Assembly: GCA_951406725.2 (NCBI GenBank)
Contig: OX597824.1
Coordinates: forward strand, 86,552,001 to 86,616,000
Direction of reading: 5' to 3'
Length of the DNA: 64,000 bases
Source of the DNA: Octopus vulgaris
Taxonomy: Eukaryota
The notes below the pieces were generated by a model. The model was given only the letters and a program-made list of their open reading frames with translations. It was not told the origin of the DNA and made no database searches. The position numbers were made by a program, and so were the translations under genes. Within the stretch, counting starts at the first letter, position 1; every line of letters starts with the position of its first letter. Below are positions 4,601 to 55,000 of the stretch, in pieces.

Positions 4601-7600
4601 ATAAAGCTGAAGTTGTCTGTGTATGGCAGGTTTGGTAGCCTTCAACTAACACTATCTCCTCCGAGACCCTGCGGCGCAAGTTGACCAAAATTGAGAGTAT
4701 GATAGAAGAAGGCTTGTTCTTCCTTCCGTAGAAGAAAAAATTCAAATCGGACCATGTTAACACCAAAAATTATTTACATAAAAAAGATGCTTTTTTTCTA
4801 TGAAAATCTCTATTTTTTACGATCTTTTGACTGCTGTGTCGCTATTTTTCTGTGTATTTCAACCAGAAAAATGCTCGCTTAACAAGAATAACAAGCTACA
4901 TAATGCAAAATTTTTACTTTTCAAAAATTCCAATTCTAAAGGGTCGAAAAGAAAACAAGCCCGAGCAACGCCGGGCTATACTGCTAGTTAAATATATCCT
5001 TAGACTAGTTTTTTATGAGTATGTAACATACTCATCCAATAATTGTTAATTCTACTCAGTTCAGTTTAGACAGCTAAATAATCCTTTCTACTCTAGGCAC
5101 AAGGCCCAAAATTTTTGGGGAGGAGGCCAGTCGATTAGATCGACCCCTGTATGCAACTGATACTTAATTTATTGACCATGAAAGGCAAAGTCGACCTCGG
5201 CGGAATTTGAACTCAGAACGTGAAGACACAAAATACCGCTAAGCATTTCGCCCGGCATGCTAACATTTCTGCCAGCTCGCCGCCTTTAGGCACCTAAGTA
5301 ATGTTAATGTTCATTAGAGTCTATACACATCGAAATCTGTTAAATTCAAGTACAGTAGCACCTTGGTTTTCATACAACTCTAATCAGAAATAAATCATGC
5401 TTTATATATATATATTTATGTAAGACACAATTTATTCGTAATCAGAGTTGTCTGAAAACCAAGGTGCTACTGTATTTATGTACTTCTGTATCTATCTGCG
5501 GCTTTATATAGCTATGGTGCGACCTCACCTGGAATTTGCATCACCGGTCTGGAACCCCTATCTTGCCCAGGATATTAATCGTTTGCAAGCCGTTCAGCAA
5601 CGTGCAACCAAGAGAATACCCTCCATCAGGCATTTGCCATATTCTGAACGCCTTACTTCCCTGGGCATGGATACATTGAAACTCCGACGTCTGGCAGCTG
5701 ACTTGGCAGACACCCATAAAATTATTAACCATCTTACTAACAATAACTCTGAGCACCTTTTCAAACTCCACCTGTCTAACACCCATGGACATGTTTACAA
5801 AGTCAGAAAACAACATTTTTTCACGCTAAGAGTTGCTGAAGCATGGAACAAACTGCCGGCATCTGTTGTTAGTCGTTGGAGCACTGCATCCTTCAAAACT
5901 TCCATGCTTCCTGAGATTGGCCAACACTACACCTGATTTCCTCCCCTCCATACACACGCAAGCATGTATCTGACTCATACACTGTTCACTTCCCAGACAT
6001 TTGTACATTAATGCATTCGTTTTATATGCAGTTTTGACAAGTTGTGGTGCACCTGAGCACTGTATACAATAATTTCATTATTATTATACATACATACATC
6101 CTTCAAAAGTCGGAGCACTGCATCCTTCAAAACTTCCATGATTCCTGAGATTCGCCAACACTACACCTAATTTTTCTCCCCTCCATACACACACAAGCAT
6201 GTATCTGACTCATACACTGTTCACTTTCCAGACATTTGTACATTAATGCATATGTTTTATACGCACTTTTGACAAGTTGTGGTGCACCTGAGCACTGTAT
6301 ACAATAATTTCATTATTATTATCATTATTTTACATACATACATCCTTCAAAAGTCGGAGCACTGCATCCTTCAAAACTTCCATGATTCCTGAGATTCGCC
6401 AACACTACACCTGATTTTTCTCTCCTCCATACACACACAAGCATGTATCCAACTCATACACTGTTCACTTCCCAGACATTTGTACATTACTGCATATGCT
6501 TTATACGCACTTTTGACAAGTTGTGGTGCACCTGAGCACTGTATACAATAATTTCATTATTATTATTATTATTATTATTATTTGTAAACAGTTTTAGATT
6601 TTGTATTATATCTTTTATCTTTTGCTCGGACTCCTAAGGTCAGGTAACTGGCCTGAAGAGTCTTAGGGCACAAGAAAAAAGAAACCTATGAAAGAGTAGA
6701 CTGTATCTCAGGTAAACATTAGCACCTGAAGCCAAATCAATTCTGGCAGGAAGGATAAAACTGTGTACTTACTCGATAAAAATAATTAAGTGAGAATGTA
6801 TCAAGATAACCTTTCTGCTGTACGTCTAAAATACGAAAAAGGTACTGTAATGACTGAGGCTCTTTCCGGTTCTCCAGGGCTAAAACAAAATCAAGGTAAG
6901 TTTTGTAGTCCTGAAAAATAAATTAGAAATATTAGACTAATGAATCATTAAGTTTTGGAAAAAGGCTATTAAAGATATTTTTTGATATTCAATTAAAAAT
7001 TAGTGCTGGTGGCACGTAAAAAGCACCATCCGTTCGTGGCCATTGCCAGCCTCGCCTGGCCCTCATGCTGGTGGCATGTAAAAAGCACCATCCGATCATG
7101 GCATTTTGCCAGCCTCGTCTGGCACCTGTGCTGGTGGCACGTAAAAAGCACCCACTACACACATGGAGTGGTTGGCGTTAGGAAGGGCATCCAGCCGAAG
7201 AAACATTGCCAGATCAGACTGGGCCTGGTGCAGCCTCCAGGCTTCCCAGACCCCAGTTGAACCGTCCAACCCATGCTAGGATGGAAAGCGGAAGCTAAAA
7301 GATGATGATCATCATTATCATCATTAAATGTTCATTTTCTCTGCTGGACAGTTTGATAGGAGCTGGCAAGCCAGAGGACTGCACCGGGTCTCTTTAGTGG
7401 AATTGTTTCTATCGCAGGATGCCCTTCCTAATGCCAACCACTTTACAGAGTGCACCGGGTGCTATTCACATGGTACAGACCAAGATGCATTTTTACTTCA
7501 TGCTAGCACGGATGCTCTTCACATGGCACCAGCACGGGTGCCTTCTACACGGTGCTGACACAGGTGCATTTTAACATGGTACCAGCATGGGGTGCTTTTT

Positions 7601-10600
7601 ACATGGCACATAAATTGAATATTATAATTTATTTGCAAGTTCACAAGGATGCAAATTTTATCTATCCAATCATGAAACTAAAAAATATCTCAATACTAAC
7701 ATCATAATCAACAAGCAGAATTAATTTCATTTCCTAACATTAACTGCTTGAACTCTTCCGCATTCGGATTTCTGTGAAATGTGATGCTTATTTATTCATT
7801 GTTCAAGCTTTCAATGATGTGATTTTATTTTTTCTTGTGCCCTAAGACTCTTTAGGCCAGTTACCTTCATTTAAAAGCAATGAAACTAGTTTATATGCAA
7901 TCAACATTTACAAAAATAATTTCTAGCCAAAATTTATCATTGAATCCTGGTTGAACTATTGAACCAATTTTAATTAATTTCTAAAACTTTTGCAACCTAA
8001 GAATTCTAAAACTGCTGTTATCTAAATAAGATAGAAATAATTTTGAAGTGGTGATCCCGAGTCTTTAACTCAGGACTCTCAAATGTCTGGGTTTGAGAAA
8101 CAAATAAATCTACTCCATATCTACAAATTAAAAAAAAAAGAAATCAAATTGAGAAATATAAACAACAAACAAGATGATGAGGATAAGAAGGAAGGCAGAT
8201 GCCAATAAAAAGTTACATAGAAACAAATCTAAAAATATAGCAACCTACAAAGGTTTTCAATACTAACCATTTCTCCATCATAAGTTAAGCATTCCTGGAA
8301 TATTCTGTCAAGAAAGACATCAGTCAAAGTTCCCGTACCATATCTGTGGTGGGAAAAAATTAACTTAAAATCATAAAAACTTAGAAATAATTCTTTCTAA
8401 TTTTGGCACAAGGCCGGCAATTTTGAGGGAAGGAGGTAAGTTGATTATATCAACCCCAGTGTTCAACTGGTACTTATTTTATTAAAATCCGAACGTGGCC
8501 GTTGCCAGCCTCGCCTGGCCCCCATGCAGGTGGCACGTAAAAAGGCTGGCAAATGGCAACGATGTAATAATAATTACCTGGATAATTCTTCTTTGCTAAG
8601 CATACCATTGTGGTCTTTATCTAAATTTAGATACTGACCATATACACGCAAAGCAGACGGCGCTGAAAACCAGTTTGATTCTTGCATTTCTTTAGAGAGT
8701 TCTTCATCACGTAACTACAAAAAAAAACAAAAAAAATAATATTACAAACTGGTAAACTGGAGCAGTACATTACCATATCTAGAACAAAAGCATCTTTTTA
8801 TCTAGTCAAATCCTCTCAAAGGATTCCTACACTATTTGTGGCATTATAACTGAAGCTCTGTCAGTCAGTCAGACTGACAGACAAGGTTATCTAGTGCAGC
8901 ATTATTAACATCAGTGAAGGCATGTGACTTAGTGGTTAGGGTGTTGAACTCATGATTGTAAGATTGTGGTTTCGATTCCTGAACTGGGCGACGCGTTGTG
9001 TTCTTGAGCAAAACACTTCATTTCACGTTGCTCCAGTCCACTCAGCTGGCAAAAATGAGTAATCCTGCAATGGACTGGCGTCCCGTCCAGCTGGGGAACA
9101 CATACGCCATGGAAACCGGGCCCATGAGCCTGGCTAGGCTTTAAAAAGGGTGCATTTATTTTGTGGAGGCGCGTGGCTTATTGGTTAGGGTGTCAGCATC
9201 ATGATCGTAAGATTGTGGTTTCGATTCCTGGACGGGGCGACGCGTTGTGTTCTTGAGCAAAACACTTCATTTCACGTTGCTCCAGTCCACTCAGCTGGCA
9301 AAAATGAGTAACGCTGCGATGGACTGGCGTCCCATCCAGCTGAGGAACACATGCGCCATAGACACTGGGAAACCAGGGCTATGAGCCTGGTTAGGCTTTA
9401 AAAGGGCGCATTTATTTTTACTTTATTATTAACATCAACCATTGTTAGATCACTGAAGTTAAGTTCAAAAATATTAAGAAACAGGATGTAATATAAGCAA
9501 ACAAAATGGTGTTGTTAAGAACAATAATATGCTTCACTTCAAAGAAAAGAAAAGGATGAGTTTGAACTTAGTACATTTATTGGTCTGAAATCTAGAATCT
9601 ATAACCAATAACAGGAATAGCTAATAAATTTAGAAAATGTTTTGTTGACTTTAGCAGCCAGTTGAAACTGTTGATGTTTTTTTATGTTTTATATAGAAAA
9701 TATATTCAGTGTTTATGCTATGAGATCTACCTAATGTTAACCCTTTAGCTTTTTAACAGGCCATATCCAGTCCAAATATTCTATCTGTTTTGTTTTTTTT
9801 TGTATATTCACACTGGCCAGATCTGGCCTTTCACACCTATCCTACGTCATTCTAAAAATAAACAACCATATCATTGAAATCTTGAAGCTGCAAGATAACG
9901 CATGATTAAGTAAAAGCTCTGTGGATAAGTAAGCATTACATTTGACTGAATAATCTGAATGCTAAAGGGTTTAAGAAAGGACTCCAATACTTTCCCGAAC
10001 TAAGTAGACTTCATAGAATAAAATGAGGAAGTACAGATGTATTGTAGGGAACAGGGTTAAAGGAATCCAAGCACCTTTACACCTTTTAACATCCATTTTT
10101 CAATATTTATTTCTTTATTGTCCGCAGGGGCCCAAACATAGAGGGGACAAACAAGGAGAGACAAAGGGATTAAGTCGATTACATCGACCCCAGTGCGGAA
10201 CTGGTACTTATTTAATCGACCCCAAAAGGATGAAAGGCAAATTTAACCTTAGCAGAATTTGAACTCAGAACATAATGGCAGGCAAAATACCTATTTCTTT
10301 ACTACCCACAAGGGGCTAAACACAGAGGGGACAAACAACGAACAGACAAATGGATTAAGTCGATTACATTGACCCCAGTGCAGAACTGGTACTTATTTAA
10401 TCAACCCCGAAAGGATGAAAGGCAAAGTCAACCTCGGCGGAATTTGAACTCAGAACATAGCGGCAGACGAAATACCGCTAAGCATTTCACCTGGCGTGAT
10501 AACGATTCTCCCAGCTCGCTGCCTTTTTCAATATTAGCACAGGTGGGACAGATATGGCCTTAAGCCATATGTTTCTATTATGCATCACCATATTTGTGAG

Positions 10601-11738
10601 ACCATCATCCTGAAATCTGATGTCATCATTTATTCCCATATCTCACTCTCTTACATGACACCCACTATTGATAATAAACAACTGTCACTCTCACCCAGCA
10701 CTCATCATTACTTCATACCACATATGCATAGCAACACGGCTGCCTGTCCTGCATTCTCATCTTATGTAAACAAATTGTTATTGCTTTTCTTTGGCCTCTG
10801 GTCAGCCTTAAGCAAGCTAGCATTTGAACAAAAGCGTTCCAATTGTGACCAACCCATCTTTTTTATTTCCAGAAAGTGCATTTTGGACCATATTATAAAA
10901 TGTGATCTTTTTTAAGATGTCAGAGTATGATCTGAAAGGAAATTCAGTTGCTATTTCCAGCAGTTGGAATGACTCTATAAAGGCTCAGTCATAACATAAT
11001 TTGAGGGATTTTGCGTTGCAAGTTACTTGGTAACCCTCCTGCTGCTGGTGCCACATAGAAAGCACACAGTACATTTTGTAAAGTGGATGACATTAGGAAG
11101 GGCATCCAGCCCTAGAAACCAGGCCGAAGCAGACACTAAAGCATGGCACAATCTTCTGTCAGCTCCTGTCAAACTGTCCAACCCATACCAGCTTGGAAGG
11201 AGAATGTTAAATGATGACGATGTAAACTGTCACTTATCTAAATTCTCTTGTTAGATCAGTGATAATTGATGCTAGTATGTGTTCTCTGCCAATCCAAACT
11301 TACCTCTAATAAATTATCAAGAAAACCACAGGCAAGGATATCCAGAATTTTAATCTTTCCAGTTCGCATAGGATCAAGGAAGAAAAAGAATTTTCTGACA
11401 GCAGTACACACGTAGAAGGAGTAAAAAGATCTTTCCAAGATATTCAACTGAAAAGAAATCAATATTTTGAAACCCAAAATAAGAAGATATATATGTGTGA
11501 ATATATATATATTTCTTTATTGCCCACAAGGGGCTAAACATAGAGGGGACAAACAAAGACAGACAAAGGGATTAAGTCGGTTACATCGACCCCAGTGCGT
11601 AACTGGTACTTCATTTATCGACCCTGAAAGGATGAAAGGCAAAGCCGACCTCGGCAGAATTTGAACTCAGAACATAACATCAGACGAAATACGGCTACGC
11701 ATTTCGCCCGGCATGCTAACGATTCTGCCAGCTAGCTG

Positions 11739-11782
<44 letters not shown>

Positions 11783-12672
11783 CAGAATTGAATAAACAAA
11801 TTTATTCTGCTTTATAATAATGAATTAATGGAGAAATTGTATCCTCACATAAGATATTTACAAAAAAATTGACAATTCATATGTTCAGTTCTATATTTAA
11901 GAGATGAGTAATTATGTACATTATTTATATTTGACGGATATTTGTCCCCATCTTGTTTGTTGTTAACACAACGTTTCATCTGATATACCCTCCAGCCTTC
12001 ATCAGGTGTCATGGGTAAATTTCAAACCTGGGTTTTCATTCCTAAGGTATTTTTCAATGTTATTGTTATTATTCAGGTCACTGCCTGGAATCGAACTCGG
12101 AATTTTGAGGTTAGTAGCCTACACTCTTAACCATTACGCCATGTGTCCAGGCATATGGTGTAGTGGTTAATTTATATGTTTCCTAACAAACTCAAATAAA
12201 AAATAACTACTGCATAAAATGGTTCTGTAGTTAAGGTCATTTTGCAAACTGTATGGCTACAGGTTCAGTCCTACTGCATGGCACCCAGAGTAAACAAATC
12301 TCGTTATAATTTTTTTTTTTTTTTAATTCATAATTGATCAACAAATCTTTTTTATCCATACTTTTAAACTAAGTACAAACATACAGAGAATATAAATGGT
12401 AATTTTAAAATATCCATAAAAATGTAGGCTACAGTAACTTATCATTTATCTTCTGCTTGCTTCAGTCACTGGACTGTGGCCATACTAGGGCAGCACCTTG
12501 AAGGGTTTAGTCAAACAAATCAACACCAGTACTTACCTTTTTAAGTCTGGTATTTCTTCTATTGGTCTTCTTTGCCAAACTGCTAAGTTACCGGGGCATA
12601 AATAAACCAATACTAGATGCCAAGTTTTGGGGATGGAGAACACAAATACATGCATATATATGTGTGTGGAAG

Positions 12673-12722
<50 letters not shown>

Positions 12723-13814
12723 GGACGCAATTGGCCAGTGTTTAGGGCAGCAGACTCGCGGTCGTAGGATCGCGGTTTCAATTTCTGGACCGGGCATTGT
12801 GAGTGTTTATTGAGCGAAAATACCTAAAGCGCCACGAGGCTCCAGCAGGGGGTGGTGGTGATCCCTGCTGTACTCTCACCACAACTTTCTCCCACTCTTT
12901 CTTCTGTTGGCCTGCTCACTTAGCCATTGGGGTGGCGTCATTTGAAGGCTAAAACAATGTGAAGCGCATTGTGACCAGCAATATGTAGCAACATCTGATA
13001 CCCTGGTCGGTCACAGTGATCATGGTGATATATATATATATATATATATATATGGTTTCTACACTGTTTCCATCTACCAGGTTCAATCACAAAGAATTAG
13101 TCAGCCTGAGGCTATAGCAGTAAACACTAGCCCAAGGTTCTGTGCAGTGGGACTGAACCTGAAATCATGTGGTTTCAAAGTGAGTTTTTTTTAACCACAC
13201 AGCCATGTCTGCACTTGTAAAAGAAAATTTCAAGACTTTTTCAATGTCGGTCACTCAGACTTTGACGAATTAGTGTCATCATCTGCTACTTTCAGAATGC
13301 ACCCCACTTTTAAACAAGAAATTAATTTTGTAGTACTTGTGTGTAAAAGTAGCTGCAAAAATAAAAAAAAAAAAAAAAAAAAAACAATATTTTACTAATA
13401 GATAATTTGTTTCCAGCCTCGTCTGGCACGTAAAAAGCACCCACTACACTCACGGAGTGGTTGGCGTTAGGAAGGGCATCCGGCCGTAGAAACATTGCCA
13501 GGTGAGACTGGGCCTGGTGCAGCCTTCTGGCTTCCCAGACCCCAGTTAAACCGTCCAACCCATGCTAGCATGGAAAGCGAACGATGATGATGATGATGAT
13601 GTGGAATGAAAAGCGAAGCCAATCTCAGAAGGATTTCAAGTCAGAATGAAAAACATACTCTGCTATTAACTGCTGATTATCTAACACCCTCAAACTATAA
13701 TTAGATAAGTTTCAGCCAGTATTGGCCGAGGTCATGTCTAAATATCATCACCTGGAAAACTCATTTAAAGGTGTTTCATACGAGTTGTTGTTTGGGCACC
13801 ATAGCCCATTCAAG

Positions 13815-13871
<57 letters not shown>

Positions 13872-16800
13872 AAAATAAGTCAAAATAGAAAATGCTAAAA
13901 TAATTTTATAAAGAACACTTCAGTACCGGTTTCGGTCATTTTGAGACCTTTTCAACTGTAATGATTAAATAATCAAATTTAGAAAAATTAAAAGAAATGT
14001 TTTTTTAAAGGAATATTCGTATAGTGTTCAAATATAAGTGGCATTTTCCTTGTTTCAGCCTTGCTCTGTCTCTCTTGTTCACACTTGTGGCATATATATA
14101 TATATATATATGCGCACACATGTATCATAAAACCATGTACAATCAATATAGCATTCCTGTTATATTAGATAACATGAAAATTATTAAGCATAGAAGTGTT
14201 ATTAATGCTTGAGCATTCTGATTACTCTATCAAATGTAATGCTTATTCATTCACATTGTTTTGAATTTGCCAGAACGCCGGACTGGCTCCTGTGCCCGTA
14301 GCATGTAAAAAGCACCATCCGATCGTGGCCGATGCCAGTGCCGTCTGACTGGCTCCCGTGCCGGTGGCACACAAAAAGCACCCGCTACACACTTGGGGTG
14401 GTTGGCATTAGGAAGGGCATCCAGCTGTAGAATCATTGCCAGAGCAGATTGGAGCCTGGTGCGGCCTCCTGGCTTGCCAGACCACAGTCAAACCGTCCAA
14501 CCCTTGCCAGCATGGAAAACAAACAAACGATGATGATGACTGTAGGACAGGTGTGAGAAGCTAGATCCAGTTTGTTTGAACATAAAAGATGGAATATCTG
14601 ATTCAGATAAAATGCTAATCCAGCCAAAATATTCCACCTTTTTCTTTTACTTGTTTCAGGCATTTGACTGCGACCATGCTGGAGCATCGCCTTTAGTCGA
14701 GCAAATCAACCCCAGGACTTATTCTTTGTAAGCCCAGTACTTATTCTATCTGTCTCTTTTGCCAAACCGCTAAGTGACGGGGACATAAACACACCAGCAT
14801 CGGTTGTCAAGCAATGCTAGGGGGACAAACACAGACACACAAACACATACACACACATACATATATATATGACAGGCTTCTTTCAGTTTCCATCTACCAA
14901 ATCCACTCACAAGGCATTGGTCGGCCCGGGGCTATAGCAGAAGACACTTGCCCAAGATGCCATGCAGTGGGACTGAACCCGGAACCATGTGGTTGGTTAG
15001 CAAGCTACTTACCACACAGCCACTCCTGCTTTCAAACCAACCAGATCCTCCCACTCACATCTACCCCCACACTGCCATCACATCATCAAAACCTCAAAAC
15101 TACAAAATACTAATGCAGGACAAATTCAAAACAATATGACTATATAATCATTACATTTGACAGAGTAATCAGAGTAATCAGTGCTAAAGGGTTAAAAAGT
15201 TAATTAAATGAAGAAGAGTTGTTATTTTTTAATATAGCTGTTAATAAACAAGCCATACATAAACATAAGAAATATTTGTTAAAGTATTGTTAAAGACTGT
15301 TAAATAATTTTGAAGAATAGAAGCTGAGATACAGAGGGAAGACAAGTATAACGAGATTTTTTTTAATGAAATAATTAAAACATGCTTTCCAAAATAACAA
15401 TGATAAAGTATATAGTATTACCAACATTTTTTATAAGGGCAAGGATAATTTTTTTTTTCTCAGTTGAAAACTTTAAAAGTTCTAAAACTTATTATTATTA
15501 TTAAGGGCACATGACATGGCTTAGTGTGAACTAATTTCAATTCCTAGACCAGGTGGTGCATTGTGTTCTTAAGCAAGACACTTCACTTCACATTGCTCTG
15601 CAATCATTTTGACACTTGACGTGTGGTACACAGTGCACCTGTTCAAACAACATTGATTTGATTGAGAGTGCAGCATGATTTGATTGAGAGTGCAGCATGA
15701 ACATTTGGTCACTATAAACAAATCATTTGTGCAGGTCATTCGGCAAAAGCCGAACGCTCATACATCGTCTTTACGGGAGAATCCGTCATTATTAATAACA
15801 ACACAAGAAATGCAGAGAAAATAGACGCTGTCAAATGCCATTGGGGATACATAGAAGTAGTTGATAGCTTTCATTATCTAGCTGTGGAGGTGGATGCTCT
15901 GAGAGCATAGCTGCTAGAATAAGAATAGGCTGGGCAAATTTGAGAGAGCTTCTACCTTTGTTGGTAACAAAGGGCCTCTCTCTCAGAGTGAAAGGCAGAT
16001 TGTATGATGCCTGTTTGCAAACAACCATGTTACATGGCAGTGAAGGGCTGTGACTGCAGAGGACATGCAAAGGCTTGAAAGAAATATAACTAGTACGTTT
16101 CACTGGATGTGCAATGTCAGTGTCCAGGTACAACAGCGTAGAAGCACCTTGAGAGAAAAATTGGGCAAAGCGGCATCAGAAAGTGATGTGCAAGGGAGAC
16201 AACTGCGCTAGTATGGTCATGTGATGCATATGTACGAGGACAGTTGCATAAAGAAGTGCTGATCGCCAACCATGTGGGGAACCTGGGGAAGAGGTAGACC
16301 CAGGAGGACTTGGGACAAGGTGGTGAAGTATGATCAGATTTTGAGATTCCACGAGGCACTGACAAGTGATCAAGACCTTTGGTGATTTGCTGTGCTGGAG
16401 AAGACTCATCAAGCCAAGTGAAATTGTAGTTGTGGCCAGTGCCAGTGACACATAAAAGCAATCATGCTGGTCACATGTAGGAGCAATCATGCTGGTCACA
16501 TGTAGGAGCACTCATGCCAGTGACACATATAAGGCATCCATGACACTCATGGAGTGGTTGACGTTAGGAAAGGGCAAGGAAACCAAACCAAATTCAGACT
16601 GCAATCTGGTGCAGCTCTCCAGGTTACTAGTTCCAGCCAAACCGTGTAACCCATGCCAGCATGGAAAGAAGATGCTAAATGATGATGATTATTATTGTAA
16701 TGCTAGCACTATGACCTGGTGTTGCCGGGTCATAGTGCTAGCACATACATATACAGCTGTGTGCGTGCGCACATACATGCGAGTACTGTCCAAATCTCCG

Positions 16801-19800
16801 GCCAATCACATACAGCTAGCTGGCATTCAATTGGCGTATCAAGTTTCGGGCATTTTGATTGGGTTTTGGATAGAAAATTCACAAAAAAAGTCACTTCTAT
16901 TGATTTTTTAATGGTTTTGCGGGGTGACTGGGTAAATGTAAAGATGTGCACGACCACCCTTGGACGGTTTTGAATGACCATAGAAAGTGCGAGCCCTCTA
17001 ACTGAAAAATTGTGGATTTGTATAAAGGACACACACACAAACAGACATTTTGCCGTTTATATATATAGAGATGACTTTTTATAGAATGATTATGAAACAC
17101 AGATATTTGTATTCCAATCACAATGGAAAAATTTATCTTGAACAAAGTAAGATAATTAATGATATTTTAAATAATAGTCCTCTCTGTAAAGTGGTTTGCA
17201 TCAGGGTGGGCATCCAGCTGTAAAAATCATGCCAAAAGAGACAGTGGAGCTTGGTGCAAGCTCCTATCAAACCATCCAGACCAATACCAGCATTGGAGAT
17301 GGACATTAAATCATAATGATGATGATGATATTTGTTTGTTTTACAATGTGGAGGCACATGGCCTAGTGGCTAAGGTGTCAAACTGGCAATTGTAAAATCA
17401 CAGTTTCATTTTCCAGATCAGGCAGTGTTGTGTTCCCTCTCTCTCTCTCTCTTTCAGAGAGGCACTGAGCAGCTATACGCACACATACACACACGGCAGG
17501 AACTTCCGCCTACCGAATTCAATCACAAAGCTTCGGTCGGCTCGGGGCTATAGTGGAATACACCTACCCAAAGTGCCACCCAGTGGGACTGAACCCGAAA
17601 CCATGTAACTAGGAAGCAAGCTCCCTAACCACACAGCCATGCCCCGTGAGTGAAAGGCATCATTTCATGTTGCTCCTGTCCACTCTACTATAAACGAACC
17701 CCAGTAATAGCTGGGGAGTTAAAACTGCAAGGGACAAGCCTCCTGTTCAGTGAGTAGTGCTGTAATCTCACTCGAGTCACTTAAAATGCCATTGAAACTG
17801 GATTAAGCCTCAGCTTTAACCCCTTCAGTCACTTTGGACAAATTTTCAGCATACATTACAAAAAAAATATAAATTATAATTAAGCTAAGTCACAGTGACC
17901 AATAGGTTGGACACCTCTAAAATGCATATATAACCAAGATCACAAGATTCTCATCCAGAGTTTGCTCACAAGTCATAGAGGATGGTTGTGTCTTCTCGTA
18001 AATCTCAGAGATGTTAAGTAAACTGGTTTTTACCACTTGGTGTTAACTAAATTTTTTTTATTTATCCATGACAAACAAATTAAACATACTGAATACTGAA
18101 TGCTTTAAAATGTAATCAATATGTGTTATTTACCTGTATTTTGGTATAAATAAAAAATTAAAATTAAAAATTAGTTTTATTTTTTTTATCCATGACTAAA
18201 GGGGTTAAGATTCCTAGGTCTCATGGAAAAAAATACTTTACAAATACAGAATCAATTGCTAAAGAATAGAATGTTGGGAAAAAATGTACCAGGAAATAAA
18301 ATACAATTGAAAAATAGAAGTTAAAAAGAAGGAGAAATAGACTTGTTCATAGTTAATATTTCAAAATTCAGAAATGACAGTTAACTATAAACATTGCAGT
18401 AGTATATAGCATTTGAAATGGAAATGTTTAAGGAAGAAACAGGATAGAAAATTGTGGTCAAAATATAGAAATGTGAAGTAATTCATTATACTTCCATTTT
18501 TTTTCTCCCCCTATATATTGGATTGTCCGGAAAGTTTGTGCCGATTATTAAAGGAAAGGAAAAGGTCAATAAATACTTGCCATTACATTTTTAATCAAGC
18601 AAGTATGAACCATTTTGTTGCACAATGCATCTCCATCTTTCCTTTAACTTGAAAATACCCTCTTCCCAGAATTGAGGTGCCTGGGAGGGGTAAGTCGAAA
18701 GGTCAGCTACTATAAATTGGCACAAACTTTCTGGACAACCCAATATAAGATATTCACAATCTGTCTCAACAAATTCTGTCTGATCCAGGATGCAAGCATG
18801 ACAGAATGGGTTAGATGATGATGGTGGTGGCGATGATGATGATGGTGGTGGTAGTAATGATGATGGTGGTGGTGGTAGTGATGATGGTGGTGGTGGTAGT
18901 GATGATGATGGTGGTGGTAGTAATGATGATGGTGGTGGTGGTAGTAATGATGATGGTGGTGGTGGTAGTAATGATGATGGTGGTGGTAGTGATGATGATG
19001 GTGGTGGTAGTGATGATGATGGTGGTGGTAGTGATGATGATGGTGGTGGTAGTGATGATGATGGTGGTGGTAGTGATGATGATGGTGGTGGTAGTGATGA
19101 TGATGGTGGTGGCGATGATGATGATGGTGGTGGTAGTAATGATGATGGTGGTGGTAGTGATGATGATGGTGGTGGTAGTGATGATGATGGTGGTGGTAGT
19201 GATGATGATGGTGGTGGTAGTAATGATGATGGTGGTGGCGATGATGATGATGGTGGTGGTAGTAATGATGATGGTGGTGGTAGTAATGATGATGGTGGTG
19301 GTAGTGATGATGATGGTGGTGGTAGTGATGAAGATGGTGGTGGTAGTGATGATGATGGTGGTGGTAGTGATGATGATGGTGGTGGTGGCGATGATGGTGG
19401 TGGTGATGATGGTGGTGGTGGTGGCGATGATGGTGGTGGTGGTGGCGATGATGGTGGTGGTGGTGGCGATGATGGTGGTGGTGGCGATGATGGTGGTGGT
19501 GGGGTGGTGACGATGATGATGATGGTGGTGGTAATGATGGTGGTGGTGGTGATGATATGATGGTGGGGTGGTGGTGGTGACGATGGTGGTGGCGATGATG
19601 ATGGAGCTGATGATTCACTCAACTATACTTCAATACGCAGCCTGAATAGTTCTACGCAAGTAATGTCTTTCTTTAGGGGGTGGGGTATTTCTTTGATATA
19701 TGAGGAGCAGTTATGATTGCAGGTTCAAGAAGTTTGCTACCCAACCACATGGTGTCATGTCCAATCCAACTGCATGGCACCTCTGTGACCTGTCAGTGAC

Positions 19801-23300: not shown

Positions 23301-23931
23301 ACAAAAGAATAAGTCCCGGGGTTGAGTTGCTCAATTAAAGGCGGTGCTCCAGCATGGCCACAGTCAAATGACTGAAACAAGTAAAAGAGTAAAAAGAGAA
23401 AAGGGTATTCTCATAAGTAGCCTTCTGTTAAACATATACAATTCCATTTTGCTCTCTCTCTCCCATTTTTATTATCACATACACATTTTCTGGCATCATA
23501 CAAATCCAAAGACAAAAGCTTACCGTTTCTTTCAAATAACCAAGCCCAGTAACATCATATAAAGATAATCCAATTCTTGTTTGATGCAACCAAACTTTTC
23601 GCATCACATAATTAAAAAACTGCATAATAGGTATTCTTCCATAATTCTCATTCTGATATAATTTTCCAAAAATAGTAGCAGTAAAGAAAGATCTGAATAA
23701 AATAAAAATAAAAACTGCTTCAGACTACAAAAAAATACAGCTAATAAGTTTATTTCATGTCAAAATTTAATATTTTCTGATTATCTAAGTACAATTTTCC
23801 ATGTATTATCAGGTATAAAAGCATTTTTAATACATATATATATATATATAAATAATAATAATATGAGGGAATATTATTCCAAACTTACAGGGAAAAATTC
23901 AATTTAGAACTACTAAATCAAATTTCACAAA

Positions 23932-23973
<42 letters not shown>

Positions 23974-25108
23974 TTACGGAGATGTACTTGCATAGCAACT
24001 GATTTGATCTGAGATCGTGTGCTGGAACGAAAACAATTGCAGTGTGGAAGGTGTTTGTAAGCCATTTAAGAAACACACAAAAGCCGTTCGATTCACTTCA
24101 ACATTTAAGTTTAATTTGTCAAGATATTTTCGTCGCTTTAAGACCGCGACCTGTTCACTGACAAAAATCCGTGCTGCAGCTTAATGTTGAAGTGAATCGA
24201 ACGGCTTTCAAACACCTTCCACTCTGCAATTGTTTTCGTTCCAGCACACAATCTCAGATCGAATCACTGGCTATGCAAGTACATCTTCGTAATATTTATA
24301 TATATATTTTATATTTTGTGAAATTTGATTTAGTATTTCTAAATTGAATTTTTCCCTGTAAGTTTGGAATAATATTCCCTCATATTAAATTACACCATCT
24401 AGAAAATTACATATTATAGAAAGATTAAATATAAGATAAAAAATATAACGATGATTATGTGCAATATATATATATATATATATATATTATGCCATATGTA
24501 AACAAACAAGTTTGTTTTTGAAGCATTGAAATGTATTGTAGAACAAGTAGAAAGATTAATTTTTTTTTGCAACACATAAATACTGAACAGTGTATATAAA
24601 GGATAAAATCCTTTATATATAGCGTTCAGTATTTAGAGGTTGAAAAAAAATTTTATGTCATGTATATATATATATATATAAGGAGGTGCTGAAAATTTCT
24701 GGTTTTAAGGGTATTGTGAAAGGCCTGCTTGGAGGCCCAACTTTTCAAGTTATTTCACAGGGCAAGACAAACAAGTGAAAAAAACCCCCTAAAGCAGTAG
24801 AGGCTAAAATTTTATTTTAAAGGGTTTTTTTTTTGATGGGTGGGTCAAAAATGGAATCTCCATTGTCAAAAAGATTCCAAAGGAAAAAGAAAAAGGATGG
24901 GGATGTAGGTTCAACACCTCTACCATGACAACAATTTATCAAAAATATTAAAATATACTTATGAAAACTCAATTACATTAATCAAATACAAATACATAGA
25001 TAATCGTAAGAGTGGCTGTGGTAAGTAGCTTGTTTACCAACCACATTGTTCTGGGTTCAATCCCACTGCGGATTTGGTAGACAGAAACTGAAAGAAGGCC
25101 GTCATATA

Positions 25109-33709: not shown

Positions 33710-34039
33710 TAATTTCTGTTGAGACTCAACGACGAATACCGTCGGTTTCTTCAGTAAGAAGTTAAATAATTCGGTTCATACGAGTGTCTGTCCATTATCT
33801 CCGCAGACGACAAACATCTTCCACCATCTTCGAATTTCCTTCCGACTAAATGAATTCTGATTGGCTGGCGATGAAGTCACGTGTCTACAGGAAGCTCGTG
33901 GCTTGTTTCTTTAATTGCAAAACATTTGTCCAGCGGATGTCTTCGGGATTTCGGCGACGCATTTACAAAAACCACTTTCCCTCGAACTTTGCCATTCAAA
34001 ATCGACACATATATAATATTTAATATTATTAAAACAACC
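33710..34039. promoter_or_regulatory. Bidirectional promoter shared by PPP2R3C and the sterol reductase
   Basis: 330-bp repeat-free, CpG-retaining gap between divergent ATGs. It holds a CCAAT box (ctgATTGGct, 33857-33866), an E-box GTCACGTG (33876-33883), an ETS-like CAGGAAG (about 33888-33894) and a YY1-like AAGATGG on the minus strand (about 33824-33830). Confidence 0.75.
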
Positions 34040-35335
34040 ATGGAAGCTTACAGAAACAACCGTGTAAATAAAAAAGGTGCCAACAAAACAGAAAAAACAA
34101 CTGATCTGGAATTTGGTGGCGTTTTGGGGACTGCAATAAACATTGTAGCTTTGCCATGCACCGTCATTATTATGAATCTCATGTGTAACGAACAAACGTG
34201 TAAATTCGGTCAGTTACCTTTCATTTATAACTGGTGGACGTATTTTGTCGATTGGACTGCAGTGTCGATGTTTTTATTTTGGATGATATTCCAATCTTTC
34301 TTGGCTATACTGCCTATTGGAAAATTGTACCAAGGTGTCCCATTAAGAGATGGGTCGCGACTTCAGTACAGATGCAACGGTTTCCTAGGTCTATTAATAT
34401 CTATATTTGCTTTTGTAGTTGCTGTCCACATGGGTTTCCCAGTTAGCATTATATACGACAAGTTTTTTCAAATGATGATATCTGCTTTAATTTTCAGTTA
34501 CATTTCGAGTGTTTTACTTTACGTAAGATCTTGGAAAGTTGCACCTTCAAAACTAGCTCCGAATGGAAACTCTGGGAATATTTTTTACGATTTCTTCATG
34601 GGACATGAACTCAACCCAAGGATCGGTTCTTTCGATTTGAAATTCTTTTGTGAGATGCGTCCAGGATTAATCGGTTGGGTTATTATTAACCTTAGTTTTG
34701 TCGTAAAATCCTATTTAGATAATTTTGGGCCATCACCTGCTCTCTTGCTTGTAACCATCTTCCAAGGCTTCTATATAGTCGATGCTTTATGGTTCGAAGA
34801 AGCTATATTAACCACTATAGATATGACCTCTGATGGGTTCGGTTTCATGTTGTGTTTTGGTGACCTCGTCTGGGTACCGTTTTTGTATACACTGCAGGGT
34901 AAATACCTTATGACGCAATCCCACAGCCTTCCGTGGTATATTTTAACTGCATTAACTGTCATAAACTGTATTGGTTACTTTATTTTCCGTTCAGCTAATT
35001 CCCAGAAAAATACATTTAGACGTGACCCCAAACATCCTTCGGTTGCGCATTTGCAAAGTATCGCCACTTCATTCCCCAATCGCCGATTATTAGTATCTGG
35101 ATGGTGGGGCATCTGCCAGAAACCTAACTATTTAGGAGACATTATTATGTCTCTCTGCTGGTCTTTGACTTGTGGGTTCGGAAGCATCCTTCCTTACTTT
35201 TACCCAATTTATTTAATCATTTTATTAATCCATCGTGAGAGACGAGATTCGGCTGCGTGTGAAAAGAAATATGGAAATAGCTGGAAGAAATATTGCAGTA
35301 AAGTGAAATATCGAATTATTCCTTATATATACTAA
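34040..35335 (+). CDS. Intronless Delta14-sterol reductase (ERG4/ERG24 family, TM7SF2/LBR-like), 431 aa, multi-pass membrane protein
   Basis: Motifs LEFGG, RLQYRCNG, GNIFYDFFMGHELNPRIGSFDLKFFCEMRPGLIGW, DGFGFMLCFGDLVWVPFLY, ANSQKNTFRRDP, LLVSGWWG...PNYLGD, LLIHRERRD...C.KKYG..WKKYC.KVKYRIIPYIY. The ATG at 34040 has a strong ACCATGG Kozak context; the listed ORF starts at an upstream GTG. There is no LBR Tudor/RS N-terminus, so the symbol is left blank. Confidence 0.95.
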   Translation: MEAYRNNRVNKKGANKTEKTTDLEFGGVLGTAINIVALPCTVIIMNLMCNEQTCKFGQLPFIYNWWTYFVDWTAVSMFLFWMIFQSFLAILPIGKLYQGVPLRDGSRLQYRCNGFLGLLISIFAFVVAVHMGFPVSIIYDKFFQMMISALIFSYISSVLLYVRSWKVAPSKLAPNGNSGNIFYDFFMGHELNPRIGSFDLKFFCEMRPGLIGWVIINLSFVVKSYLDNFGPSPALLLVTIFQGFYIVDALWFEEAILTTIDMTSDGFGFMLCFGDLVWVPFLYTLQGKYLMTQSHSLPWYILTALTVINCIGYFIFRSANSQKNTFRRDPKHPSVAHLQSIATSFPNRRLLVSGWWGICQKPNYLGDIIMSLCWSLTCGFGSILPYFYPIYLIILLIHRERRDSAACEKKYGNSWKKYCSKVKYRIIPYIY

Positions 35336-52026: not shown

Positions 52027-55000
52027 ATATTCATATATATATATATATATACACACATATATATTATTAATATTAAATAATACAAGGACAAAGTGTCTTG
52101 AAAAATTAACTATAAATATCAATAAACAGTAAGCATCCTATTAAATAGATATACATGATGTAATCAAATAATTTTAAAATTCAACAAAATTTTAAAAAAA
52201 ACTTAAAATCAATTTTTCACTTCAAAAATCTTGCGTATTAAAACATGTATAGAAAAATATTTATAGTTAATAAATTACTAGAAATATAATTTTTCTATTG
52301 TTTAAAGTTTTTGTTTTGGGGTTTTTTGGGGTTTTTTTTTTTACTTTTACTTTTTTTTTTAAATCTCCACTGCATCTAAGAAGCAGATGACAAGATTTAG
52401 TCATTTTCAACTTCAATTCCTCTTCCCCATCATACTAAAATTTTAAGGTGAGTTTGATGATTAATTAATTTCTTACACAGACGCAAAGTTTTATTAGGGA
52501 TTACGGGACATTTCGGCACAGCCCTTTAGGCACTTCCTATTTGGCTTGGCTGATTTGAGACTGAGGCTTTTCTCATTCTGGTGTTTCTATTCTCATGTTG
52601 CTCACATTCTCTCTCCTTCTCTCTGTGAGCATATTTTTCTTTATGTACAAGGAGAGGGGGAGGTGTTTATGTCAGTTGTGTTCAATTAATAATTAATAAA
52701 TTGTAATGTCTCTCTCTCTCTCTCCTTCTTCCCCCTCTCTTGCACTTGCTCACTAATTATCTTTCCATGTGTATGTTTTTGTGTGCATATGTGTGTATGT
52801 GGAGGCGCAATGACCCAGTGGTTAGGGCAGCGAACTCGCGGTCGTAGGATCGCGGTTTCGATTCCCAGACCGGGTGTTGTGAGTGTTTATTGAGCGAAAA
52901 CACCTAAAAAGCTCCACGAGGCTCTGGCAGGGGGTCATGGCGATCCCTGCTGTACTCTTTCACCACAACTTTCTTCTGTTGGCCTGCTTGCTTAGCCAGC
53001 GGGGTGGCGTCATTTGGAGGCTAAAACAAAGCGAAGCACATTGTGACCAGCGATGTGTAGCAACATCTGATAGCCTGGTCAGTCACGGTGATCATGGTGA
53101 TGTGTGTACGTATTCGCCTTCAGTGCCACAAAGTACTGTAGTTGAAACAGGTTCAATGTCCAGTCTGCTATGCCAAGTCCCCAGCCCCCAAACAGCAATG
53201 CCTAGTCATCCCATTCTGCTTATTACACAAGAGGAGTTATATTTTAATGTTTGTGCTACACACACACACACACATATAACCTAATGTTGGAGAATTCGCA
53301 CCTATTTCAATGCTAATGAAAACAGCACCAAACATTATATATTTCCTTTCCCTAATAAGACATTGTGTTTGTCTAAGAAATAAACTCACATTAAACCTTA
53401 GCAGATTCAGCTAGCCAGAGTTTACATATACATACCCATATATATATATATGTGTGTGTGTATGTATGTATGTATATATGTATATATATATATATTTACA
53501 TATATATGTATATATACATATATATATATATGTATGTATATATATATGTATGTATATATATATATGTGTATTTATGTATATATATATGTATATATATATG
53601 TGTGTATTTATGTATATATATATATATGTATTTATGTATATATATATATATACACATGCATATATTTATGTATATATATATATATACACATGCATATATA
53701 TATATGCACATGCATATATATATATATATATATGCACATGCATATATATATATATATATGATAAATCTCTGAACGAGGTATATATGTATATACACGCACT
53801 CTATAGTGCTTTCAAACCAGTGTTAAATTGTTGATTGCAGTAAAAATTTAAATGTTTAATTTTTGCTGGTGAAAGCTGAGAATTTAAGAAAATAATCAAA
53901 ACTAATATATGATAGGTGGTAAATTCAGAAATCGTTTTGAAAAAAATTCATTCAAACAAAATTTTAAAATTCATTACAATTATTTCCTAGGTTTGTCCTA
54001 GGAAATCAGTTGACAAGTTTGAGATCAAAGATTTCATTTTCAACAATGAAAAACTACAAATTACTTACTAATAAAAAGGTTTTTACCAGTATAAAGAGAG
54101 AAAATAATTGACTCGGCAGCAACTTTAGAAACAACAATTTTTGTTGAAGTGAAATAAGGAATGAGAAGAAGCAATTCAAACTACTAATTCCTGCTCAAAA
54201 GATACATTTAAAAAAACTTTTAAGGTAAAAAACCCTTGTGTTTATAAGAAAAATTGTGATGCTCATTACTTTTTAAATTGCATTAATAGCTTGAGTGAAG
54301 TGAAATAACTTCAACAATAGATTTTAAATAAGACTAAGAATTTTGCTTGCTATGAACCTACTGTTTTTTGGGGGTTTTTTTTACCAAATTTTTAATATAT
54401 TATTGAGTTAACTTCACTTCAACATTTATTATTTGGTATCAGAATTTGGTGAGGAAAATTTCAACATCAAATAATAAATGTTTAAGTGGAGTTAACAGTC
54501 TGTTGTGTGCTTTTGGACAGGTATTATGTGTCTTTCATCCTGTAAATGTTTTAGTTTCAACACACAACCTCAGATGGAATCATTTGCCAGACAAGTACAT
54601 CTCCGGAAATAATGACAGTTGATATCAGCCAAAACAGGAATCATGGCTGACTAGGTCCTTTATAGGTAACATATAAGATGCATTATTAAGAATTAAAGGT
54701 TTTATTGAATAATAAATCCTTCAAGTAATTCATTGCTTTCAATGAAGACAAGTTGAAAACAGTTGCTAACATTAAAAGAAAACCTAGCAACCTATTCAGA
54801 AAAGCATTTATTTTAACTTTTAGCACACTTTGGTGCATCATGTCACCGTATGAGTTATTGCTGCTGCAGCTGCATTGTGTCACATTGAGAAGGGACAAAA
54901 CTTATATGGCAACATGATGCACCTACAGCATGCTAAAGGTTAATAGAATAGAAACCAAAAATGATTACTGATCCTATCGGCTTTTATTTATGACAGCTTA

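Follow-up and report, generated by a model that had tools for sequence, protein, structure and literature searches.

The analysed stretch (the window) comprises 64,000 nt of Octopus vulgaris contig OX597824.1 (assembly GCA_951406725.2, positions 86,552,001 to 86,616,000), and all coordinates below refer to it. A tblastn search with an Octopus PPP2R3C protein (P0002) placed two exons of this gene on the minus strand, one at 25589-25452, with approximate ends, and one at about 23692-23524, which is preceded by an AG acceptor at 23694-23693. Because these minus-strand exons lie on both sides of the hammerhead motif described here (24115-24165, minus strand), the motif is intronic and, as the initial annotation had stated, on the sense strand of the gene; it lies 167 nt from the acceptor. 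Elsewhere in the window, an intronless open frame of 486 codons (33875-35335, plus strand) and PPP2R3C, whose start is at about 33709, are arranged head to head; we take the frame to resemble a sterol reductase of the TM7SF2/LBR type.

As judged from the sequence, folds, a descriptor scan and contigs of the repeat family to which it belongs, the motif has the layout of a minimal type I hammerhead with a G3-C8 core, damaged at position 16.1 in this copy. The 7-nt 5' strand of stem I (24159-24165) pairs with the 3' strand (24115-24121, of which 24119 is variable in the family) with probabilities of 0.64-0.90 within the whole fold-back. It is followed by the core GUGAACA (24152-24158; G3-U4-G5-A6-A7-C8-A9), in which other letters stay below 3% in all four runs analysed. 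An extra G (24151) then separates A9 from G10.1, or by slippage forms a bulge after G10.1; it was identified in the descriptor scan, and neither substitutions nor indels are listed for it at 3% or more. Stem II (24132-24150) consists of 5 bp beginning with G10.1-C11.1, its strands (24150-24146 and 24136-24132) enclosing a 9-nt loop (24145-24137) that is variable in the family, and has a pair probability of 0.98. Next come GAAA (24128-24131), corresponding to G12 A13 A14 A15.1 and likewise with other letters below 3%, and the stem III segment AUAUCU (24122-24127), which family contigs and self-complementarity resolve into AUAU, position 16.1 (24123) and U17 (24122). The predicted cut falls between 24122 and 24121. 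Scan, folds and family letters agree in placing stems I and II around U4 G5 A6, A9 and G12 A13 A14, the three-way junction of a hammerhead, and the 3-8 pair is a Watson-Crick G3-C8 both in this copy and in the family, as opposed to the canonical C3-G8. The initial annotation had proposed a hammerhead with exactly this swap, which the layout and the family letters bear out; its 7-bp stem I, GUGAACA, 5-bp stem II and GAAA are all present, while the extra G at 24151 had been overlooked.

Both stems form when the whole fold-back is folded, with pair probabilities of 0.64-0.98, and the fold of the 53-nt motif has a z score of -2.8, 1 of 200 shuffles being equally good. A descriptor allowing any Watson-Crick 3-8 pair with a stem I of 7 and a stem II of 5 found the motif as the only site in the window and no site in any of 40 block-wise shuffles, a result flattered by thresholds taken from the motif itself. 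Hammerheads are absent among the Rfam matches listed (150 of 185, E up to 10). A 22-letter pattern of the motif had no match in viral_contigs, and its one match in metagenome_contigs (L001) was rejected as chance since it lacks GAAA and the second strand of stem II, with unrelated flanks. The initial annotation had also cited a second motif near 13916, with a different 3-8 pair, as an argument against chance. That motif (13919-13958, minus strand) is hammerhead-like, with U3-A8, GAAA CCGG UA, a 4-bp stem II and a 3-bp stem I; it passes the descriptor only when stem I is relaxed to 3 bp, at which setting shuffles yield 1.7 sites per window and 31 of 40 contain at least one. Standing at chance stringency, it adds little, and the real support comes from the family data.

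Letters of the repeat family containing the motif, family A, were read from contigs of four public runs (X1, X2, X3 and X8, with four organism labels) aligned to 23972-24184 at 80% likeness; the contigs are short and unphased, and a diverged C3-G8 sister family could escape them. Each run contributed 5,653-18,127 contigs, with a summed depth of 0.7-3.6 million compared to about 4-50 for the long single contigs listed. We take the copy number to be ~10^4 to 10^5, as an order of magnitude only, given that depth is not copy number. At 24123, a plus-strand A, equivalent to U16.1, makes up 99.9, 99.6, 99.7 and 99.9% of depth in X1, X2, X3 and X8, respectively, whereas this copy carries C on the minus strand. 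C16.1 is therefore private to this copy, and, because it breaks the A15.1-U16.1 pair, the predicted hammerhead found here is likely inactive. The initial annotation had suspected that the cleavage segment was mutated in this copy, which is what we find, and had regarded the hammerhead as untenable if a consensus lacked the A15.1-U16.1 pair or a non-G at position 17. The family has both, with U17 showing no other letter among those listed, and its predicted cut site is UU.

In family A, seventeen of the 18 core and stem III positions show no other letter at 3% or more, the eighteenth being the change private to this copy, and for G3, C8, the inserted G, GAAA, AUAU and U17, alternative letters remain below 3% and indels likewise are absent at 3% or more in the four runs. 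Thirty positions are variable, in that a second letter reaches at least 3% in some run: 21 within the 143 nt outside the motif and 9 inside it, the latter comprising 4 of the 9 positions of loop II, 3 of the 10 of stem II (all CpG sites, at 3-6%), 1 in stem I and 24123. At the stem I position, 24119, 9-18% of depth carries a change of U-A to U.G, by which a wobble pair is retained; apart from this single change, no two-sided stem change at 3% or more was found in the unphased contigs of the four runs. Six other interior CpG sites have decayed, and none is listed as such within 24131-24135, a stretch between two reference mismatches where this may be a clipping artefact. With U16.1, the segment from A14 to U17 is a perfect 8-nt palindrome, with a computed duplex energy of -2.0 kcal/mol; with C16.1 it is not self-complementary. 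Sameness across copies is no proof of selection, since recent common descent can also produce it.

These letters also bear on whether the motif is simply a chance resemblance within a repeat. The motif is short and, as noted above, hammerheads do not appear among the Rfam matches listed, and yet none of the 40 shuffles contains a site, the family letter repairs the single defect, and the position matches that of Penelope hammerheads. Chance has already been largely refuted by the family letters, and we assign it only a vanishing probability. The hammerhead-type motif, with a swapped core throughout its family, is real.

The repeat itself is a very high-copy octopus family that is likely a Penelope-like retroelement. 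Family contigs and pile-ups of loose ends delimit the long copy (23974-24178, minus strand), an end piece or pseudo-LTR of the likely Penelope-like element, with its 3' end at 23973/23974. Within it, an ORF starts with an ATG at 24065, which lies 56 nt beyond the predicted cut, and stays open as far as the element extends, to ORF +92, such that its first 31 codons (23973-24065) are present before the insertion end truncates it. Against the O. sinensis gene model P0007 (residues 1-31), the encoded peptide is identical at 28 of 31 positions, and the family majority letter encodes the P0007 residue at two of the three differences (H8R and V23L). The peptide also matches P0008, an O. bimaculoides gene model and the sole match of a HMMER search with a 35-aa peptide. 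A third model, P0009 of O. vulgaris, overlaps P0007 with 78% identity over 151 aa. Beyond this overlap, P0009 contains PKF, RWR, DKS and GLRKDHK in this order, as identified by eye. Pfam returned no family for P0009, the PDB search was empty, and Atlas searches yielded unnamed clusters only, with DUF8422 on 16-41% of members; P0007, P0008 and P0009 all stop before the reverse transcriptase (RT) core and reach neither this core nor a GIY-YIG domain. P0007 joins the N-terminal 225 residues of the element to a methyltransferase domain and is likely a gene-prediction chimera. The arrangement fits an EN+ Penelope-like element: a hammerhead lies in the end repeat beside the ORF start, the 3' end falls inside the ORF start, an inverted 5'-truncated copy adjoins the 5' end, and the target is AT-rich. 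Many opposite-strand joints are present in the contigs of other family A copies as well.

Loose ends leading into unrelated DNA accumulate at both boundaries of the unit, in 102-147 contigs per run at 23973/23974 and 77-159 at 24178, with an agreement near 0.45 at both. At the cut site (24121/24122), none appears among the 24 of 943 rows listed, and the genomic copies accordingly give no sign of cut RNA being copied. Both ends are probably common to many family A copies, which likely continue across the cut site; we infer from this that uncut RNA was their template. In other copies, the letters following 24178 would give the RNA a 5' end in which ~7 of 8 bases are complementary to a stretch by the 3' end (23974-23982); with such complementarity, and a boundary near 24178-24182, reverse transcription may begin adjacent to a helix.

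Sharp ends on both sides also invite another reading of family A, namely a non-autonomous retrozyme-like unit of ~210 nt, lacking an autonomous parent and moving via small circular RNAs. Its length falls within that of animal retrozyme monomers, 170-400 nt (PMC7229834), and an origin of retrozymes from pLTRs has been proposed (bioRxiv 10.64898/2026.07.22.740005). However, the unit breaks off within an ORF whose continuation is present in three Octopus gene models, its ends lie away from the cut site and its hammerhead is of the minimal type. Moreover, the copy at this locus is single and ends in an ORF start, rather than forming the tandem monomers that define a non-LTR retrozyme. We regard this reading as improbable, and treat family A below as the end of a likely Penelope-like element.

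The motif occupies the unpaired centre (about 24110-24179) of a fold-back spanning 23859-24387, both reported in the initial annotation and confirmed here, with a length of 529 bp. Between the arms there are 8 mismatches, a 22-nt deletion, a 1-nt gap and a difference in TA-tract length, and their comparison identifies 24180-24292 (plus strand) as a short inverted copy of family A that carries the 22-nt deletion and no hammerhead. Only one hammerhead is present in the fold-back, because this inverted arm falls about 12 nt short of reaching the cut site. The outer arms are neither unique host DNA nor a MITE, both of which are excluded, as they correspond to the 3' end of a second repeat family, family B. 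Contigs of the four runs aligned to 24293-24462 indicate that family B is of high copy number, with a 3' end fixed at 24387 followed by (TTA)n in 42-78 contigs per run. In one arm (23859-23973, minus strand), contigs on the mirror copy and the sequence itself identify the family B 3' end, which includes the TA tract and served as target for family A, with (AAT)n beyond 23859; in the other (24293-24387, plus strand), an inverted duplicate of this end shows 2 mismatches in 95 and high depth. The loose ends that precede 24294 and those that precede 24384 overlap as reverse complements and cover about 37 nt absent from this locus; 24384-24457 (minus strand) is therefore the upstream part of the same B copy, sharing ATTA (24384-24387), the only ATTA in that B arm, with the inverted arm. 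On the minus strand, the order is thus B upstream part, inverted B 3' end, inverted A 3' part, A, B 3' end and (TTA)n. The initial annotation had recognized the palindrome and missed its construction from two repeat families, as well as the inserted G9.1 and the Penelope-like end.

A likely origin of the fold-back is the insertion of family A into a B copy, during which the newly made strand turned back on itself and copied the 3' part of A and the B flank; the simplest history is that this strand was then rejoined at ATTA, likely with the loss of about 37 nt of B. Two alternatives fit too, a later template switch during replication or local re-insertion from a transcript of the locus that starts at the 3' end of B itself. 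The mismatches in the two arm parts (6 of 113 versus 2 of 95) cannot date them apart. Inverted joints occur in other copies of family B (24293-24457), which is possibly another Penelope-like family. An older, diverged relative of family A, with 78% identity over 77 nt, occupies 54475-54608 and a hairpin at 54407-54496; it repeats the fold-back layout with 30-bp arms (z -8.6), is truncated in the hammerhead region and retains only a GAAA remnant. Two small palindromes with AT-rich centres, at 24564-24648 and 5349-5477, are visible in the sequence and gave sub-threshold matches to miRNA models.

The placement of the fold-back within a PPP2R3C intron raises the question of whether the motif, or the fold-back as a whole, has been co-opted by the host for cleavage or regulation of PPP2R3C pre-mRNA. 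It lies in sense orientation, close to the acceptor, and its stems still form in the fold-back. On the other hand, the A15.1-U16.1 pair has been lost, no second hammerhead is available as a partner, the arms are decaying and the locus is one of very many copies. Nothing ties the motif to regulation of PPP2R3C, and such a takeover seems to us highly improbable; the copy at 24115-24165 is a damaged one. The fold-back would place about 200 bp of double-stranded RNA in PPP2R3C pre-mRNA, likely a substrate for A-to-I editing.

Based on the data presented above, we consider it probable, though well short of certain, that the motif belongs to the minimal type I hammerheads and sits in the end piece of a likely Penelope-like element, that G3-C8 is its family-wide state, that the family form is a weak cutter acting as a dimer while this copy is likely inactive, and that the fold-back records an insertion of A into B. 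The direct observations behind this reading are the layout, the letters of the family, an ORF that begins 56 nt after the predicted cut and the end at ORF +92. Against it stand the inserted G, the lack of a listed loose end at the cut site and the lack of a compensatory stem change. In a viroid hammerhead, an inserted G is the poorly tolerated one. The family form is predicted to cleave itself weakly, as a dimer, in which stem III would be completed by pairing of two RNAs along their self-complementary A14-U17 segments, probably with help from the element protein. This protein would bind the ORF start and begin reverse transcription inside the RNA at +92, much as PAc (Poseidon of Anolis carolinensis) does at +111-118, and copying would continue beyond the uncut hammerhead as far as a favored 5' boundary near 24178-24182, giving units of about 205-210 nt.

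Whether the family hammerhead cuts at all bears on what hammerheads serve in Penelope-like elements, given that those of metazoans cut poorly (PMC4209133) and that the hammerhead was dispensable for in vitro insertion by PAc (PMC11167929). A very high copy number combined with a partial-rescue core implies either that weak cutting suffices or that the motif is dispensable. The latter corresponds to an element as described above with a catalytically dead hammerhead, a structural relic that is dispensable for reverse transcription. For PAc, mutating the hammerhead left insertion in vitro unaffected and none of the reads terminated at the cut site (PMC11167929), and metazoan minimal hammerheads (min-HHRs) are described as poor cutters (PMC4209133). 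The family A motif bears two handicaps, the swap and the inserted G, its copies run through the cut site, and compensatory stem changes were not seen. However, selection for catalysis would be expected to leave just such a picture: a double change restoring the 3-8 pair, and U16.1, U17 and the palindrome all conserved alongside a variable loop II. The hammerhead of PAc, a Penelope element, retains part of its activity with this swap (PMC11167929). A dead relic is an appreciable possibility, albeit an unlikely one. To a closely similar and marginally lesser degree, we entertain the idea that G3-C8 and the inserted G make up a hammerhead tuned down by nature and kept so by selection. If so, uncut RNA would be needed for copying past the hammerhead, some cutting, triggered by the dimer or by the element's own protein, would make a 5' end 56 nt before the ATG, and swapped-core ribozymes, to which CUGANGA searches are blind, would form a large and as yet uncounted class in animal genomes, with family A offering a direct test of what Penelope hammerheads serve. 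Family A also shows that whole families escape descriptor searches built around CUGANGA or UUGANAA.

Among known hammerheads, the closest in architecture are the metazoan Penelope min-HHRs (Cervera and de la Pena 2014, PMC4209133), which are characterized by a base between 9 and 10.1, G10.1-C11.1 and a 15.2-16.2 palindrome; all three features are present here. They are likewise of type I, lack a stem III in the monomer and occur mostly as single truncated copies, and their cleavage is weak and dimer-dependent (PMC4209133). In contrast, their 3-8 pair is C-G or, naturally, U-A rather than G-C, their inserted base is A or U rather than G in each of 14 rows taken from the supplement, and stem I measures 4-5 bp in the Schistosoma families rather than 7 bp (PMC4209133). 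The four GUGANCA words had no match in supplement file 2 of the same paper. Natural U3-A8 hammerheads (Perreault et al. 2011, PMC3088659) provide a precedent for a natural compensatory change at 3-8; these changes are transitions, whereas the one here is a double transversion, and the passages available from that study do not name G3-C8. As read from the sequence, the G3-C8 core, known from laboratory mutants as a partial rescue, is natural in family A. Within the literature searched, and in the available portions of these sources, G3-C8 cores occur as laboratory mutants only (PMC3884650, PMC11167929, PMC8495972), with partial rescue by the engineered pair also noted in a review (PMC8495972) and a remark on the pair made in connection with G17 variants (PMC3884650); this does not establish that a natural example is absent from print.

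With regard to the protein, RWR, DKS and GLRKDHK follow one another in P0009, as judged by eye, in the way that RWK, DKT and KDHK do in the RTs of Hydra-clade Penelope-like elements (Craig et al. 2021, PMC8557442), which share TA-rich targets and an inverted 5'-truncated arm. P0009 differs from the Hydra-clade proteins described there in DKS, a long N-terminal region and the PKF motif, and it is not Hydra-1_Obim; the supplement of that paper contained no match for this N-terminus or this core (PMC8557442). In genomic layout, family A fits PAc (PMC11167929), which also has a hammerhead at the pLTR-ORF junction, a 3' end ~100 nt into the ORF and an AT-rich target, with ATT preferred. The two differ in the position of the ATG, 26 nt upstream of the cut in PAc and 56 nt downstream here, and in the insertion end, which in PAc follows from reverse transcription starting inside the ORF at +111-118 and here lies at ORF +92 (PMC11167929). 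For PAc, cleavage requires protein and the main template is uncut RNA (PMC11167929). Finally, the PAc double mutant C3G/G8C, which is partly active, has by engineering the very core that family A carries naturally (PMC11167929).
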